A stretch of 64,000 nt of DNA. Source: a virus (lineage: Duplodnaviria > Heunggongvirae > Uroviricota > Caudoviricetes). The position numbers and the translations under genes were made by a program. The stretch lies in the IMG/VR virus record IMGVR_UViG_3300035698_029829, positions 7,427-71,426 of that record; one strand, written 5' to 3'. Positions 19,147 to 58,898 of the stretch are shown piece by piece; position 1 is the first letter of the stretch; the number at the start of each line of letters is the position of its first letter. Below the pieces are notes generated by a model. The model had not been told where the DNA came from, searched no databases, and saw nothing but the letters and a program-made list of their open reading frames with translations.

Positions 19147-20337
19147 TCATCCTTTCACTCCACCTTTCTTCTCGCCGCCTTTGACAACGGCGAAGGGTCG
19201 AATCACATCCTTTATCTCCACGACAACGCCTTTCTGGGCGTTGATAACGTAATCCTCGTCCTTGTAAGCACGCGGAGCCTCGTCCAGCGTATCCGCACTC
19301 ACCGGCGCGAGGATACCAGCCATATCGGCCTGGAATTCACCCAGATCCAGCGTCTTCTTGGCCTTCGAGCGTCCCATCAGACGGCCCGCGCCGTGCGACG
19401 CCGAGGACAGGTACTCCTCGTTACCGAGGCCCACCGTCACGTAGACACCCGCGCCCATGCTGATCGGGATCACCCCGAGCTGGCCCTTGTCTGCCGGAGT
19501 CGCGCCCTTACGGTGTAATACGCCGTCCGGTCGAACCACCGCGTGGTTGTGGTTCTCGTTCACCATCCCTTCAAACATCGGCCGCTGCTCCCACTTGGAG
19601 AAGCCAAGTGTAGTCAGCGCCGCAATCATCATTCGGCGACGATTCTCCAGCGCGTATTCCAGGAAGAAGTCCAAGTCCTGCATGTACGCCTGGCCCAGAT
19701 CCGAATTGAGGGCGAAGAACCGATCCTTCTTGGCAATCCGCATATACACGTCCGCCGATTTCCAGCCCGGCCCGCGCGACCCCGAATGGATCGTAACACA
19801 AACCTCGCCGGTTTGCTCGCTGACGCCCAGCTCCAGGAAGTGGTTGCCCGCGCCGAGCGTGCCAACCTGGTGCCCAAGCTTCGCGTTGATCTCCTGCTCC
19901 TTCCTTTTTACGTCCACTCGGCCCTCGGCCAGTTCCGGATCAAAGGAGAACCGGAACGACTTGTACTCCTGTCGCTGCGCGTGGTTCGAGTTTAGGCCCA
20001 CCGGAATAGTCTCGAACAACCGCTGCCACACCGGCCGCACGTTGTGTTCCCGCACATCGGCGTCATCGCGCGACCCGTGGAATAGCTGCTCGAAGGTTCG
20101 GCCCGTACGAACCAAGCACATGCCGCAACCCTGGTCGTAACCAACGTAATACGGACTCACCATGCCATCGAGCAAAGCAACCCCGCCGATGGGTAGGTCG
20201 TAGCCCTGGTGCACGTCCGGCATCACAACGAGCCGCTTCAGAAACGGCAGTTCCAGCGCCGCGTATATCTGCTGCTGTGCGCCTTGCTCGATCTCGTGCA
20301 TGGGCACCAACATCCATAATTTTTCGATCTTACTCAT
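19147..20337 (-). CDS. rtcB: RtcB RNA ligase
   Basis: MPDVH, DQGCG, GAGNHFLE, HSGSRG, NHN, HRKGAT, SHGAGR, EAP.AYK. Confidence 0.96.
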   Translation of the reverse strand: MSKIEKLWMLVPMHEIEQGAQQQIYAALELPFLKRLVVMPDVHQGYDLPIGGVALLDGMVSPYYVGYDQGCGMCLVRTGRTFEQLFHGSRDDADVREHNVRPVWQRLFETIPVGLNSNHAQRQEYKSFRFSFDPELAEGRVDVKRKEQEINAKLGHQVGTLGAGNHFLELGVSEQTGEVCVTIHSGSRGPGWKSADVYMRIAKKDRFFALNSDLGQAYMQDLDFFLEYALENRRRMMIAALTTLGFSKWEQRPMFEGMVNENHNHAVVRPDGVLHRKGATPADKGQLGVIPISMGAGVYVTVGLGNEEYLSSASHGAGRLMGRSKAKKTLDLGEFQADMAGILAPVSADTLDEAPRAYKDEDYVINAQKGVVVEIKDVIRPFAVVKGGEKKGGVKG

Positions 20338-33522: not shown

Positions 33523-33527
33523 TTAAG

Positions 33528-33602
33528 TTACCAGGGAAGGAATCGAACCTCCAGTCTTCGAGCTTTTAACGACTCGACGCGCTACCACTGCACCACCCGG
33601 TA
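33528..33602 (-). tRNA. tRNA with expanded (8-10 nt) anticodon loop, identity unclear
   Basis: TACCGGG/CCTGGTA, normal D and T arms, TCGAG-TCGTTAAAAG-CTCGA. Confidence 0.65.
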
Positions 33603-33606
33603 TTAG

Positions 33607-33681
33607 TGGTGCGCCAGGTAGGAATTGAACCCACGTGGGCGGAGTTAGAACCCGCTGCCTAAACCATTCGGCCACTGGCGC
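33607..33681 (-). tRNA. Amber suppressor tRNA (CTA)
   Basis: GCGGG-TT-CTA-AC-TCCGC anticodon arm, intact cloverleaf, A73-CCA. Confidence 0.8.
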
Positions 33682-35161: not shown

Positions 35162-35575
35162 TCAGTATTTACCACTATATACCTTGAAATGTCGAGCCGG
35201 AAGCGGCCTCGTTACCACCAAAAAAGCAGGAAGACCTAGTTCCTTGGTCTGATCAAGCTCGTCTTGCACATTTTTGCCTATTCCGTCTTCAGGATCAACG
35301 GCTAGAACAGAAACAGGCACTTTCTTCAATAAAAGCACAGTGTCACACCCACGTTCATTAGCAAACCACTCAGCATTTTCAGAAAAAGTAGTGACATAAA
35401 GGTAGCGCGGTTGCCCTTGGTTGCCCCCTGGCAACACCTGGTTGGGTCGCCAGCCGTTCTTCACCATCAATTTGGCACTATCCATACAGGTGCCGTGATA
35501 GAGGTCGATAGTTTGCGCACCCTCATCAAGAGCCCACTCTGCTAAAATCTCGTCTACGCTGCGTTCGTCTTTCAT
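35162..35575 (-). CDS. ADP-ribosyltransferase-like small protein
   Basis: LYHGT...G....YLYVT....A..FA pattern; N-terminal RSVDEIL..W.LDE leader. Confidence 0.5.
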   Translation of the reverse strand: MKDERSVDEILAEWALDEGAQTIDLYHGTCMDSAKLMVKNGWRPNQVLPGGNQGQPRYLYVTTFSENAEWFANERGCDTVLLLKKVPVSVLAVDPEDGIGKNVQDELDQTKELGLPAFLVVTRPLPARHFKVYSGKY

Positions 35576-36461: not shown

Positions 36462-36593
36462 TGACCGCGAGAGTTGGCGGTAACGGTGATTACTACGGGG
36501 ATCGAACCCGCATGACCCTTTCGGGTCGTCAGTTTTGTGGACTGATGCCTAAACCAATTCGGCGAAGTAACCGGTACCTGTGCTGCGCGGCCA
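36462..36593 (-). ncRNA. Y RNA-like module carrying a complete class II tRNA (anticodon ACA)
   Basis: TGGCCGCG/CGCGGTCA, CAGCACAG/CGCCAACTCT loop, N8 stem continuous with acceptor GGTTACT/AGTAATC. Confidence 0.72.
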
Positions 36594-37693: not shown

Positions 37694-38038
37694 TGGACGT
37701 GCGGGGAATTGAACCCCGGTCCTGAATGGTCCAGATTGAGCTACTACGTGCGTAGTCCGCGATTTAATGTCGCCGGTCGCGCTCCCACGGACGGGATCAC
37801 TATGGCCTTTTCCGCCTTTATCTCGGTTAATCACCGACGGAGTCAATCAACCCAGCCACCTGTTTGTGACGCCTCTTCCACTCCCGTTGGCCCGGAACAG
37901 AGAAACGGGTCGCTTAATTAAGCGGCCAGGAGTTCAATGTCGGCATCTGAACTTTGGTCAGTTTTTTACGAGGCCAACTGACCAACCTCGGCACGCAACT
38001 TTCACCTTCACACATCCAGTCGAATCCGATTCACGCCC
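37694..38038 (-). ncRNA. ssrA: tmRNA
   Basis: 5' GGGCGTG..GGATTCGAC, 3' T arm and CACGTCC-A with G3-U70; tag (A)DQSSDADIELLAA* after AAAAAACT. Confidence 0.92.
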
Positions 38039-38062
38039 ATATTTCAAAAAGCCGCAATAGCC

Positions 38063-38197
38063 TTTACGGCGGAGCCCCGACATTTTTCATCCGGGTGGCA
38101 GGCAAGGATGTTCTTCTGTGGTCAAAGAGGGGTGCACGACCCTCTACACGGAGTCCCTACACGCTGCAAATGGCTTTAGCCACTCTCCCGTAAAAGC
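38063..38197 (-). ncRNA. Candidate structured ncRNA (array unit A)
   Basis: Closing stem GCTTTTACGG/CCGTAAAGGC, preceded by boxA-like site. Confidence 0.5.
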
Positions 38198-38224
38198 TAT
38201 TTTTCAAAGATCAAAAGAAAGGCC

Positions 38225-38335
38225 CGGGAATGTGGCCCTCACCAACCTTTCCAGCCTTTCCTATTCTTCGAGAGGTCTCTTACTCTCGGACGGTTATTAC
38301 TACTGTTCCAGTATCAGAGTGACCGGCCACATTCC
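38225..38335 (-). ncRNA. Candidate structured ncRNA (array unit B)
   Basis: 12-bp closing stem GGGAATGTGGCC/GGCCACATTCCC. Confidence 0.55.
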
Positions 38336-38355
38336 CTATTTCAAAGATCGAAATT

Positions 38356-38505
38356 AGCATCGTTCAGATGACCACTGCGGGGTTATTGCTGAGGTTTCCC
38401 TCGACTTTATGGCGGCCTCTGCCCGACTCCTGATCCAGCGTCCCAGATTCCCCGAATTCCCGCGTCACGGGTTGTGAGGAGCCGTGATCACCTGAACGAT
38501 ACCAA
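38356..38505 (-). ncRNA. Candidate structured ncRNA (array unit C)
   Basis: About 18-bp closing stem ATCGTTCAGGTGATCAC/GTGGTCATCTGAACGAT. Confidence 0.55.
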
Positions 38506-38536
38506 CCCTGAAATTTCAAAGAGCGAAGAGCGAAAC

Positions 38537-38719
38537 TTTAGCTGGTGTGCTACTACGCCAAAAGGGGGTTCCACCTTACCGTCTCCGGGGTGCTTCACCA
38601 CTTCCCCATTTACCCGCTGGCAGAACCTTTCTTGCTTTTACCACAAGGGGCTTATTACCGACGGTGGTTCGCCCTACTCTTTAGAGGGTGGCTGCCTCTA
38701 AGCCAACCTTCCAGCTAAA
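38537..38719 (-). ncRNA. Stand-alone mimic of the 23S rRNA L11-binding domain (H42-H44) with large insertion
   Basis: GCTGGAAGGTTGGCTTAGAGGCAGCCACCCTCTAAAGAGT...GCGTAGTAGCACACCAGC matches E. coli 23S 1051-1108 with compensatory pairs. Confidence 0.8.
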
Positions 38720-38889
38720 ATATTAAAGAACGAAGTCATAGGGCTCCGCGTGCCGGTTGACCCAACCGTAAGCGAGCACGTCGTCGCAGCCTCGCTATTC
38801 CGCGACGAACGAAGAACCCTTGAGGCGCATCCTACCAAACCTCGTGAGGTTTGTCAAGAGTTCTTATTACGTTTTTTGAAATTTTGTAA

Positions 38890-38963
38890 GGCCAGCGACA
38901 GGAGTTGAACCTGCGACATCTCGCATACGAAACGAGCGCTCTACCAATCTGAGCTACGCTGGC
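38890..38963 (-). tRNA. tRNA-Thr(CGT)
   Basis: Loop TT-CGT-AT. Confidence 0.9.
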
Positions 38964-39058
38964 GCAATCTTCCGCGTTTCCAATGGTATCCGCCAATCTC
39001 CGGCATCCCGCCGTTTTCAACAAATATGCGCTCGATCTTTATGTCCCTTATCTTCTGA

Positions 39059-39145
39059 CGGAGAGGACAGGATTTGAACCTGCGTAGGTGTTACCCTATC
39101 TGGTTTAGCAAACCAGTGCCATCAACCTGACTCGGCCACCTCTCC
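39059..39145 (-). tRNA. tRNA-Ser(GCT)
   Basis: Loop TT-GCT-AA, variable arm, G73. Confidence 0.92.
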
Positions 39146-39259
39146 ATACGAGCCAACAGGTCTGTCGAGGACGAGCCTGTTGGAAAAACCGGGGAGGAGG
39201 ACGGCCCCCTCCCCGGGGTATTTCAATTTTACGCGGCATCTCTCTATTTAATTGTCAAA

Positions 39260-39637
39260 GATCGCCTTGCGCTGCGTTGCGCTGCGCGCCGCACAATTAC
39301 CAGGTCCTAAAACGTCAAAAGCCTCCCAAGTTCCCTTGAGAGGCTTCCGACTGTTGGTGACGAGGTCTGGTTTAGTCGGAAGCCCCCCGTATAGGCACGA
39401 TACCGAGCAGGCTATCAGCGGTGGACGGCAATGCCGTCACGGCCGCCGAACGCACTCCTGCTGGGCACGACGCGGTTAGCGTCGCAGCTAAGCGAGCTGT
39501 CTGTATGTGCGTGTTACGGTTCATTTCCAACCACTCCATGCGCCTTTTGGCACTAAATTTTGTTCGCGAGATAAGCGCGCCAGGCGGCCTGTGCATCTCG
39601 AAAGAAACGAAGTAGCCCAGCACTGTGCTGCGCGAAC
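39260..39637 (-). ncRNA. Large structured RNA beginning with the Y RNA-like module
   Basis: Starts at promoter 39667; GCGCAGCACAG-TGCTGGGC-TACTTCG, partner GCCCAGCA at 39459-39466, several hairpins, tandem CGCAGCGCAA near 3' end. Confidence 0.65.
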
Positions 39638-39834
39638 ACGACCAACCTAACAGAGGGCGCAAGGTTTGTCAAGAACTTTTTTTCGCTGATCGAATTTTTT
39701 TCAGTGGTAAGATAAAAGAGCTGAGAGAAAAGGGGCACTGAGATATGCGAGAGCGCCCGGAACGATTGGGATCTTGAGCGGAGGATCGGGCGCGTCATGG
39801 CTCGTTATGAACCGAAAAGGCAGGAGGTGAAGGG

Positions 39835-56725: not shown

Positions 56726-58117
56726 TTACTGAGAAGCCAGAAATTCCCGAAGAAACATCCGGCCACCTTCCTCATCCTCAAACTTCCCGTCAAGCTGCGC
56801 TTCGAAACAGGCATCCAGCACAGGACGAAAGTGCTTGCCTGGGTTCCAACCCAGATCCATCAGGTGCCGACCCATCACAATGGGTTTCGGGGCCTGATCT
56901 CGCACGCCGAGTTCTTCGATGCGTTCCAAGAGCCACGTTGCAAACCGGTTATCAGGCTTCAAAGGAGGCCGACCGGCCTGATCGCACGCGGCTACCCGCA
57001 ACAACCGATCTACGCGCTTAACGCGACGAGCGAGCCGCCGGATCGCCGAACTAGAGGCTTTTACCTCGAAAAGTTCAAGGGGCTTCAGGTGTTCCACAAC
57101 CAAGTCGCAAACCTCGGTGTCGAGGCCGTGTTCGTTGGTCAAGCGTGCCAGGAAGCTCCGCGTCGGTGCGGCCCCCGCCGCTTCGTGTCCCTTCGACTTC
57201 CAGCGTCCATCTAAGAACGCGGTCGTCTCAGGCTTACCAAAGTCATGACAGAGTACCGCCAACCCGACCACCAGGTCTTCGCGAGAATCGCCGGTGCGTG
57301 TATGCGCGAAGGCATCCAGACAGTGCTTGGTGTGTTCAAACACATCCCCCTCGGGATGCCACGCTGGATTTTGCGGGCAATCCACGAGAGCCTCGACCTC
57401 CGGAAAGAACCGAAGCCACCCTACCTCGCGCAGGAAGTCGAGTCCAAGCGACGGTCGAACTCCCCGCAGGAGTAACTTCTGCCACTCATCGAACAGGCGT
57501 TCCTTCGGCAGATCCTCGATGTCGCCGCGCCGACAAACCTCAACGAGATCGTCGGACGGCTCAAAGTCGAACCGTGCCAGGAACTGCGCCGCTCGTAAGA
57601 CCCTCAATGGGTCCTCCAAAAAAGCGTCGGGGTTGGGGTGACCGGGCATCCGAGAAACCGGATGTAACAGGCGTGCCCGCAGATGCGTCTGACCGTCAAA
57701 CGGATCAAACAGATCATCGGTTAACGGGTCCCAGGATAAAGAGTTGATGGTGAAATCTCGACGTGCCGCCGCTTCAGCGACGGTCATGGTTGGATCGGAG
57801 TTGATCTCGAAACCTCGGTGTCCGAGACCTCGCTTGCTCTCGCGGCGAGGGATGGACACGTCGACGGGGAAATCCTTCAGTTTGAGTACACCGAAATCTT
57901 TACCAACCAGGTCAAGTGCGAAACCATGCGACAGCGTGTCGACCAATCTGTCGGGGCTAAGGCCGAAAACCTCTACGTCGAGATCATTCGGCTCATTCTC
58001 CAATAGAAGATCGCGCACACAACCGCCAACGAGTAGCGCGCGTCCACGCGCCCTCTCTACGCTCCGGCAAAGGGAAAGCAGCGCTTCCCGCGCCGGAAGC
58101 CGATGAAGTGCTTCCAT
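56726..58117 (-). CDS. cca: CCA-adding enzyme/tRNA nucleotidyltransferase with HD domain
   Basis: VGGCVRD, DLDVE, RRDFTIN, EDPLRVLR, ERL..EW.K, H.EGDV..H, LCHDFGK. Confidence 0.9.
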   Translation of the reverse strand: MEALHRLPAREALLSLCRSVERARGRALLVGGCVRDLLLENEPNDLDVEVFGLSPDRLVDTLSHGFALDLVGKDFGVLKLKDFPVDVSIPRRESKRGLGHRGFEINSDPTMTVAEAAARRDFTINSLSWDPLTDDLFDPFDGQTHLRARLLHPVSRMPGHPNPDAFLEDPLRVLRAAQFLARFDFEPSDDLVEVCRRGDIEDLPKERLFDEWQKLLLRGVRPSLGLDFLREVGWLRFFPEVEALVDCPQNPAWHPEGDVFEHTKHCLDAFAHTRTGDSREDLVVGLAVLCHDFGKPETTAFLDGRWKSKGHEAAGAAPTRSFLARLTNEHGLDTEVCDLVVEHLKPLELFEVKASSSAIRRLARRVKRVDRLLRVAACDQAGRPPLKPDNRFATWLLERIEELGVRDQAPKPIVMGRHLMDLGWNPGKHFRPVLDACFEAQLDGKFEDEEGGRMFLREFLASQ

Positions 58118-58147
58118 GATGTTCTCCCTTCGCGTTAATGTTGATAA

Positions 58148-58221
58148 CTCCTGGAGAGGGAATCGAACCCCCGACATCTCGGTTAACGGCCGAGCGCTCT
58201 GGCCTGCTGAGCTATCCAGGA
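58148..58221 (-). tRNA. tRNA-Asn(GTT), C33
   Basis: U1-A72, G73, loop CC-GTT-AA. Confidence 0.9.
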
Positions 58222-58898
58222 ATAATTCCGTACCTTTTAGCCCACTTCCGAACCGCATTGTCGGTCACTCCATACCGTTTGCCGATCTGCGTGAATGGGA
58301 TCTTCTCGTCAATCAGATTCATGAGTTCGTCTTTCGAGGGCCACTCGACTTTTCTGCGCGCCAACTGAAAGCACTTCTGTGAACAGAACTTCTGCCTTAT
58401 TTTCTTAGGAGCCCCACAGATAGGACAGGGATCAACAGGGGCCTCGCGCTTCGGAAAGGCTCTCGACTCATCGCGAAGGCTAGAAATACGCACGCGATAA
58501 TCCTCGGCCCAGAGCGGCTCTCGCCCGTTGCTCCCTTTTAACGGGGCAACCCTCAGCGAGCACCAGCTAGTACCAACAGCCTCTACCGGAACCAAATAAA
58601 CCTCATCCAGTTCAGGACAAAACACCCCAAAAAACTCACACTGGCCTCGGTAATTTCTTGTACCTCGCCCTCGGTGAGCATAGCTACTACACAAATTGAA
58701 CCCTATCGCACCGTTCTTCAAGCGACCCGTCTTAACCTGAATCCGCACAAAAACGCCGTCGCGATCAAGCACCAGGTCGTAGCGTTGATTATCGCCGAAA
58801 GGAAACAAGACAACCTCAGCCGCCTTCAACAAAGAAGCCATCACAGCCGCTTCTGACCGTTCGCCTATCGCCTTCGAGTTCATCTGCACCTCCAACAA
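58212..58898 (-). CDS. PD-(D/E)xK endonuclease of the group I intron-associated type
   Basis: G..SE, RYDLVLD..G..VRIQVKTG; CPIC and C-terminal HTH; TAG stop is U8-A9-G10 of tRNA-Asn. Confidence 0.78.
   Translation of the reverse strand: MLEVQMNSKAIGERSEAAVMASLLKAAEVVLFPFGDNQRYDLVLDRDGVFVRIQVKTGRLKNGAIGFNLCSSYAHRGRGTRNYRGQCEFFGVFCPELDEVYLVPVEAVGTSWCSLRVAPLKGSNGREPLWAEDYRVRISSLRDESRAFPKREAPVDPCPICGAPKKIRQKFCSQKCFQLARRKVEWPSKDELMNLIDEKIPFTQIGKRYGVTDNAVRKWAKRYGIIPG

Follow-up and report, generated by a model that had tools for sequence, protein, structure and literature searches.

A putative phage non-coding RNA that imitates the GTPase-associated centre of 23S rRNA and carries an inserted domain in helix 44

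Among the translation components already described from phages are tRNAs, tmRNA and a few ribosomal proteins; published accounts of ribosomal RNA fragments in a phage genome were sought, and none was found. One of the closest described counterparts of the element analyzed here is the GTPase-associated centre (GAC) of bacterial 23S rRNA, which in E. coli spans positions 1051-1108 (58 nt) and which, as an isolated 58-mer, binds uL11. The phage element has the same helices, the same non-canonical R1056/A1103, U1060/Y1078 and G1093/A1098 and the same tertiary contact positions; with the sampled Bacillota-type rRNAs, the copy in the window (the whole stretch of 64,000 nucleotides that was analyzed) also shares GAGU at 1087-1090. 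Unlike the rRNA domain, the element is free-standing and accompanied by no other rRNA sequence, as are 114 of the 116 matches to the 5' pattern described below. Its helix 44 (H44) is opened into a three-way junction that holds an insert and then a UUUR linker, its position 1101 is A, giving a U1090-A1101 pair, and helix 42 (H42) proper is replaced by a generic stem. Moreover, the stems and the 1082-1086 pair of the phage RNAs covary freely, and A1067 and G1068 vary.

The L10_leader (rplJ, RF00557) is likewise an off-ribosome RNA that imitates an r-protein site of the 23S stalk base, with a proposed competition for the protein. However, such leaders regulate cellular r-protein operons in cis from the 5' UTR and resemble the rRNA site only in part, whereas the phage element appears as an independent RNA gene in a tRNA array and is a near-exact copy of the uL11 site, not of the uL10 site. 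Neither an Rfam leader match (E<=10) nor a downstream r-protein gene was found at the element, whose neighbors are RNA genes. Phage tRNAs, tmRNA and the Ro60-bound Y RNAs with tRNA-like modules (YrlA) share with it the principle of imitating a translation component; the element lies in the same arrays and on the same strand as the tRNAs and tmRNA of the phage, which also encodes a TROVE/Ro60-like protein and RtcB. In contrast to these RNAs, the element imitates an rRNA domain and not a tRNA, and its closing stem covaries freely and has no conserved Ro-binding sequence; none of the Rfam Y RNA, tRNA and tmRNA models matches it. GOLLD and ROOL are comparable as structured RNAs of phages and prophages that have no assigned function and cluster with tRNA genes, but they have no sequence or model similarity to the element (Rfam, E<=10), which is much smaller and has an rRNA domain as its core.

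Resemblance of the element to the ribosomal domain

The source phage record was obtained from IMG/VR, measures 156,689 bp and is estimated to be 62% complete; the DNA runs containing the window are salt-lake metagenomes. A tail sheath, a baseplate hub and an SbcC-like nuclease are encoded in the record, which is therefore that of a large tailed phage. The GAC copy was located on the minus strand, at window positions 38715-38541. This strand, which is fixed by the G-U pairs in the helices, was absent from an earlier, sequence-only reading of the locus.

As that reading had proposed, the two ends of the element correspond to E. coli 23S 1051-1090 (38715-38676, 30 of 40 positions identical) and 1091-1108 (38558-38541, 13 of 18), which amounts to 43/58 identities over the whole core, and the 1067 and 1095 loops are both kept, including A1067 itself. 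The four compensatory pairs that it had named are also real: relative to E. coli, C-G is replaced by U-A at 1053-1106, A-U by G-C at 1054-1105, U-A by G-C at 1058-1080 and A-U by U-A at 1090-1101. Additionally, an E. coli G-U pair is found as G1051-C1108 in the window copy. All of the GAC helix pairs form, both in the closing stem (1051-1055/1104-1108) and in H43 (1057-1059/1079-1081 and 1062-1064/1074-1076) and H44 (1087-1102, 1090-1101 and 1091-1092/1099-1100). The sole departure from GAC pairing is C1082/A1086 instead of U-A; it had already been noticed, and it proved to be common to 15 of the 122 listed family members, among which U-A was counted in 72, C-G in 29 and A-U in 4.

The tertiary contacts of the GAC, reportedly seen in the structures of Conn 1999 and Wimberly 1999, are those of U1060, G1071, C1072, A1085, A1088 and the U1082-A1086 pair, G1071 and C1072 making theirs with the 1091-1100 and 1092-1099 pairs. 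All of these residues are present in the window copy, except that 1082/1086 is C/A. The deviations G1070, C1078, C1082/A1086 and G1096 of this copy each recur in the phage family or in genuine rRNA. With the family covariance model (R1), in whose training set the element was included, a score of 95.4 bits (E ~1e-26) was obtained over the full length of the model for the segment 38541-38715(-), which is the single match in the phage genome, so that one copy is present. The window copy matches the family consensus at all of the motif positions, namely the insertion at 1090/1091, the basal helix, the UUUR linker and A1101. The minimum free energy fold of the single sequence had a z-score of -1.16, and the structure predicted in this way misses the GAC fold. 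The parts of the RNA and its neighbors are collected in Table 1.

Table 1. Coordinates of the parts of the GAC-mimic RNA and of neighboring features in the window (numbers such as 1051 are E. coli 23S positions).
Feature	Window position	Strand	Evidence or remark
Whole inferred RNA, 187 nt (GAC-mimic core and insert)	38535..38721	-	R1 hit 38541-38715 plus helix extension of 6 bp beyond 1051/1108
Closing helix, 5' strand (counterpart of the top of H42, 1051-1055, plus 6 pairs)	38711..38721	-	Pairs with 38535-38545
H43 mimic (1057-1081)	38685..38709	-	E. coli alignment, LSU model hit, covariation at 1057-1081, 1058-1080 and 1064-1074
1067 'thiostrepton' loop, UUAGAGGCA	38693-38701	-	Within the H43 mimic
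Junction 1082-1090, CUAAAGAGU	38676..38684	-	C1082/A1086; A1088, U1090 final bases before the insert
Inserted domain, 117 nt, at a three-way junction in H44	38559..38675	-	Between U1090 and G1091
Basal 4-bp helix of the insert	38672-38675 with 38563-38566	-	All pair types covary
Insert 'module B'	38567-38603	-	Hairpin CCG-GAGA-CGG at 38579-38588
UUUG linker	38559-38562	-	UUUG in 102 and UUUA in 20 of 122 listed members
H44 mimic (1091-1102), 1095 loop GUAGUA	38547..38558	-	E. coli alignment
A1103 and closing helix, 3' strand (1104-1108 plus 6 pairs)	38535..38546	-	Pair counts, alignment
tmRNA	37694-38038	-	Rfam 162.6 bits; short predicted tag peptide ADIELLAA
RtcB RNA ligase	19147-20337	-	Pfam E=1.4e-70; accompanies the RNA island
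TROVE/Ro60-like protein, 739 aa	48707-50926	-	E=9e-8; in or beside the RNA island
CCA-adding or poly(A)-polymerase-type nucleotidyltransferase with HD domain	56726-58258	-	In or beside the RNA island
Candidate structured RNA, ORF-free	~38725-38885	-	Flanks the GAC mimic
Candidate structured RNA, ORF-free	~38350-38512	-	Flanks the GAC mimic
Candidate structured RNA, ORF-free	~38212-38338	-	Flanks the GAC mimic
Candidate structured RNA, ORF-free	~38045-38200	-	Flanks the GAC mimic

No matching family for the element was found in Rfam 15, and a full-text literature search found no published description of a phage GAC-mimic RNA family. For these two reasons, the GAC-mimic RNA appears to be a kind of phage gene so far undescribed, for which we infer a function below. 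At E<=10, the region 38030-38900 gave only DUF805b (E=0.39, 14.6 bits), ctRNA_p42d and RNase_MRP on the wrong strand; all of them are far below their gathering scores and were rejected as chance matches.

Members of the family and support for the common fold

A scan of IMG/VR with a pattern of the H43 half (the 5' module) gave 116 contigs. When these were compared with E. coli 23S by BLAST, two were genuine rRNA (L093, with 2,352 nt aligned, and L034, where the match lies at the contig end), and the remaining 114 had 30-43 nt in common with 23S and no more. In all of these 114, UAAAGAG(U/C) is followed by unrelated sequence and not by a continuation of rRNA, and most of them have the conserved YUUURGCGUANNAGCACA 85-400 nt downstream, after which come five bases complementary to the five ahead of H43. 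A scan with the 3' module gave at least 120 contigs, and both scans combined yielded at least 122 unique elements of 85-427 nt on IMG/VR phage contigs. The homologue search in phage metagenomes that the sequence-only reading had suggested has, in this way, produced well over 100 carrier contigs.

Complete but unannotated copies, with R1 scores of 75-98 bits, were also detected in cultured phages: Pseudomonas phages Milchi and pf16, Xanthomonas phage XacN1, Aeromonas phage 4_4572 and Erwinia phage Kaldavass. Compact forms were found on six MAG contigs by a pattern scan of genome contigs that was restricted to inserts of 20-50 nt, and these six matches thus understate any presence in cellular genomes. 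The host range of the family extends from Pseudomonas to Clostridia-like MAG contigs. In Milchi (L214:2163-2478), a weak second R1 match (16.1 bits, E=0.0036) lies directly upstream of the full copy and may be a degenerate duplicate or noise; a second, weaker R1 match (29.6 bits) was also seen at locus L151.

tRNA or tmRNA genes lie no more than 1.5 kb from the element at 74 of 94 loci, all of them on its strand. At about one fifth of the loci no tRNA lies within this distance, and in XacN1 and Kaldavass the element stands among protein genes. A conserved protein neighbor was not found, the commonest neighboring family being present at 7 of the 121 listed loci; the top neighbor clusters are calcineurin-like phosphoesterase, PTH2, AAA ATPase and DUF7788/DUF2828. 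In the XacN1 locus (L223:830-1726), a gene with the annotation 2'-5' RNA ligase (ORF260) ends 19 nt before the start of the mimic (L223:1499-1726), which is a single case.

The fold was examined by motif-anchored pair counts, which need no structure-guided alignment. All four Watson-Crick types occur at 1058-1080, compensatory changes were observed at 1057-1081 and 1064-1074, and the four bases just behind U1090 form a helix, through all pair types, with the four bases preceding the invariant UUUR linker. The closing pairs 1051-1055/1104-1108 also show all four Watson-Crick types, and G1091-C1100 and C1092-G1099 are invariant in the family at positions that the search patterns partly fixed. 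Beyond 1051/1108 the closing helix is extended, with free covariation, by a median of about 4 bp in the family and by 6 bp in the window, and this covarying closing helix of its own marks the element as a self-contained unit.

Additionally, RNAalifold was run on a MAFFT alignment of 41 members and recovered the GAC helices and the basal helix of the insert, with double changes at 14 of the 18 pairs. With R1, 79 matches were obtained, among the matches listed, on 95 loci gathered by the 3' module alone. In the R1 alignment of 75 distinct sequences, pairing was seen in 93.7% of the cells (69.7% in shuffles), and covariation scored 0.585, compared with 0.150 in shuffles (reached by 0 of 500) and at most 0.146 in slid-partner controls; this alignment is fitted to the model and leans towards its structure, and it agrees with the independent motif-anchored counts. 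The earlier view of the locus as a stand-alone, selected GAC fold with a domain in H44 is borne out by this strong covariation and by the compensatory changes. Judged by its sequence and by those of its homologues, the element is a genuine selected phage gene for a non-coding RNA and one member of a large family found in the tRNA arrays of big tailed phages.

Conservation was compared between 57 listed phage members, gathered without an H43 constraint, and 14 distinct genuine 23S sequences from a set made up of E. coli, 15 genomes of one phylum and one rRNA-bearing contig. At least 95% conservation was observed in the phage RNAs for U1060, G1063, G1071, C1072, C1075, A1077, A1085 and A1088. 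By contrast, the A at 1067 is kept in 39 of the 57 phage members and the G at 1068 in 35, both being found in 14/14 of the sampled rRNAs. Positions 1096/1097 of the H44 loop vary across the family; G1093, U1094, A1095 and A1098 are kept, the H44 positions having been fixed by the search patterns. Ribosomal A1067 makes a stacking contact with the tRNA elbow and governs sensitivity to thiostrepton (PMC5829649). The conserved fold positions, together with the drift of A1067 and G1068, indicate that selection on the family has favored the fold over the factor-facing apex, and the variability of A1067 argues against the view that the selected feature is a faithful factor-docking or thiostrepton site. 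Such a pattern would fit selection for the fold and for uL11-CTD binding, not for factor contact.

The element could also be read as a pseudogene, an rRNA fragment that was captured and is now decaying, or as an assembly chimera of phage and bacterial rRNA, a reading to which we give next to no probability. Its 5' half is highly identical to genuine 23S, and many contigs of the same metagenomes match 38676-38712 only and then continue into unlike sequence. However, two different salt-lake studies each provide a contig that covers the element together with its flanks and has zero differences (X1, covering 38072-39085 and possibly from the source sample itself, and X2, covering 38227-38739), which excludes a chimera, one of the refutations that the sequence-only reading had named. 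Moreover, the 3' half follows after 117 nt in the correct order and register, and more than 100 divergent homologues hold the fold through compensatory change. The Rfam model LSU_rRNA_bacteria gave one match (38663-38712(-), model positions 1095-1146, E=1.5e-5, 20.9 bits, below the gathering score) and no other LSU match in the whole 156,689-bp record. With this one short match and nothing else in the record, the element is no part of an rRNA gene, in agreement with the former observation that no other 23S sequence flanks it. The rRNA-fragment and chimera readings are excluded. As for the contigs that match 38676-38712 only, they do so at about 90% identity and are either genuine 23S rRNAs or GAC mimics of other phages of the same habitat.

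The surrounding RNA genes and the inserted domain

In the window, the region of approximately 21.7-59.9 kb contains 50 tRNA genes as well as a single tmRNA gene, every one of them on the minus strand. The GAC mimic sits between the tmRNA and a tRNA-Thr gene (38890-38963) on the same strand, and no ORF of at least 60 aa was found on the RNA strand at 38040-38830 or in the 850-bp tmRNA-tRNA-Thr gap. For the four flanking RNA units of Table 1, no Rfam match and no significant similarity to E. coli 16S or 23S was found, and the unit at 39150-39640 likewise had no significant similarity to either rRNA. A known RNA-repair module consists of Ro60, Y RNA and RtcB, so that some of the unassigned RNAs of this island could be Y-RNA-like.

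The motif UCUUUGAAA follows three consecutive RNA units (38522-38514, 38347-38339 and 38210-38202) and has 4 matches in the window, where 0.78 are expected. A block of five RNAs is flanked by a sigma-70-like promoter (38857-38829) on one side and by a terminator-like hairpin (38070-38051) on the other; the count of promoter-like matches is no higher than chance. A uL11 homologue (PF00298) was sought in the 62%-complete phage record and not found, and any protein partner must therefore be host-derived. Among the tRNA calls made by ARAGORN, 33527-33681(-) holds two neighbors, one with a CUA (amber-reading) anticodon and the other with a four-base anticodon call, 'ttaa'; a further tRNA of 88 nt at 36485-36572(-) has the anticodon ACA and is labelled Cys. 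A 137-aa ORF at 35162-35575(-) gave no Pfam match at E<=0.1 and no PHROG match at E<=0.01.

The insertion point between 1090 and 1091 is the same in every family member. The inserts measure between about 27 nt and about 370 nt, with 371 and 421 nt given for loci L023 and L204, and in the shortest members (85-87 nt) the insert consists of a plain hairpin only. No insert motif common to the whole family was found beyond the basal helix and the linker. Module B (ACC-CCR-N4-YGG-UAAGG, ending 10-12 nt before the linker) is present in 22 of the 122 listed members, including that of the window; RNAalifold places in it a small hairpin within two short helices, and the closing R-Y pair of this hairpin covaries (G-U in 14, G-C in 5 and A-U in 3).

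The self-pairing insert of about 115 nt in the sequence-only reading is found to measure 117 nt, and its AGGG/CCCT pairing is the covarying basal helix. The second pairing claimed there, ACCGTC/GACGGT, did not stand: its 5' partner occurs in the window alone (1 of the 22 module-B members) and it clashes with the conserved CCR-N4-YGG hairpin, so this pairing is probably coincidental.

The insert of the window can be aligned to E. coli 23S 1280-1366 (score 51, z=4.6 and 4.4 in two tests), a match that lies within chance because about 120 inserts were tested. A second rRNA copy in the insert was rejected, as no other tested insert, including those of close module-B relatives, maps to this region, and the rRNA helices of the region are not reproduced. 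A sarcin-ricin loop was also considered and discarded, since the motif (AGUA-N-GNRA-N-GA) is absent from the window insert. A sarcin-ricin-loop-like motif, AGUACGGGAGGA, was observed within the long inserts of the IMG/VR loci L023 and L204 (2 of the 122 listed members).

Proposed function, alternatives and significance

The reading that we prefer, to which we give an even chance of being correct, is that the RNA acts as an off-ribosome mimic that binds host uL11. The ends of the element would fold into the compact GAC tertiary structure (top of H42, H43 and H44), with the lineage-specific domain projecting at the three-way junction between U1090 and G1091. The phage RNA would then bind, off the ribosome, host uL11, the protein that recognizes the GAC fold, and this binding would compete with the host ribosome stalk base or divert components from it; uL11-poor ribosomes and a blunted uL11-dependent stringent response are possible outcomes. 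A uL11-binding mimic is the simplest mechanism, since a faithful GAC fold is the only feature of all members and the isolated fold binds uL11. In the ribosomal domain, uL11 and thiostrepton bind helix 43, and uL10 requires helix 42 almost completely, the minimal fragment of full affinity being 95 nt (PMC1635324). Because the mimic is without H42, the assembly of a full stalk (uL10-bL12) on it is unlikely; the uL10 site assumed in the sequence-only reading is at best partly present, since the RNA has a generic stem in place of H42, which covaries and is about 11 bp long. Two further points count against the preferred reading, namely the C/A combination at 1082/1086 of the window copy, where a Watson-Crick pair would be expected, and the lack of a recurrent protein gene beside the element. 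A bolder version of this proposal, which we regard as unlikely, is a free-standing 'stalk-base' particle of the RNA and host uL11, maybe circularized by RtcB, that would strip or withhold uL11 and silence the RelA-dependent stringent response, or would soak up GAC-directed toxins, defence enzymes or ribosome-docking GTPases. If this were true, it would be the first virus encoding a functional piece of rRNA as a weapon.

A decoy for a GAC ligand other than uL11, such as a toxin or defence enzyme of the host or a competitor that attacks this rRNA site, a translational GTPase, a ribosome-docking GTPase-nuclease or the A-site tRNA elbow, is a doubtful alternative. A role against RNA-targeting defences has been ascribed to phage tRNA arrays, and Munishkin and Wool (1997) reportedly describe the binding of EF-G to oligoribonucleotide mimics of the thiostrepton domain, both of which would agree with a decoy. 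So would the ADP-ribosylation of H44 (nt 1095-1098) of the GAC by Tre23, which blocks the EF-G GTPase (PMC8661411), the stacking of the tRNA elbow on A1067 (PMC5829649) and the presence of RtcB, the TROVE/Ro60-like protein and the CCA-adding-type enzyme in or beside the same RNA island. However, a faithful bait would be expected to keep A1067 and G1068 of the H43 loop and 1096/1097 of the H44 loop, and the variation at these four positions weakens the decoy reading. The wide host span of the family also favors a universal partner such as uL11. To our knowledge, moreover, no anti-phage defence system is directed at the GAC.

The same drift of the functional apex A1067, beside the conservation of positions of the tertiary fold, would suit a GAC fold that serves as a stable, nuclease-resistant cassette without ribosomal partners and displays the insert, in which the function would then lie. 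This is quite unlikely in our estimate, even though the insert always exits the same junction via a conserved 4-bp helix and the UUUR linker and there are sub-families with insert modules of their own (module B in 22/122 and the sarcin-ricin-loop-like motif in 2/122 listed members). Against it, the inserts vary widely in length, are plain hairpins in the shortest members and have no family-wide motif, which leaves the GAC itself as the only common element; that G1093, U1094, A1095, A1098 and mostly A1067 are kept beyond the needs of the fold is a weak further point, as H44 was fixed by the search patterns. The embedding in co-oriented RNA gene arrays, the recurrence of UCUUUGAAA after three consecutive units and the one sigma-70-like promoter and one terminator-like hairpin around the five-RNA block could also point to a cis-acting element of an RNA operon, an r-protein-binding or processing module involved in maturation, stability or antitermination of the tRNA/ncRNA transcript, with no trans-acting RNA. 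This is very unlikely, however, given the loci without a nearby tRNA, the copies among protein genes in two cultured phages, the self-contained unit marked by the closing helix and a number of promoter-like matches that does not exceed chance.

The preferred reading of a uL11-binding mimic can be tested directly, since cultured carriers exist (pf16, Milchi, XacN1, 4_4572 and Kaldavass). Many large phages, across hosts and habitats, maintain a selected, near-exact and stand-alone copy of a highly conserved functional centre of the ribosome. The family is also a natural experiment on the GAC fold, in which a three-way junction in H44 and variation of A1067 are tolerated. If the RNA binds uL11 or other GAC ligands, it would represent a new route by which phages seize translation or evade stress or defence responses.
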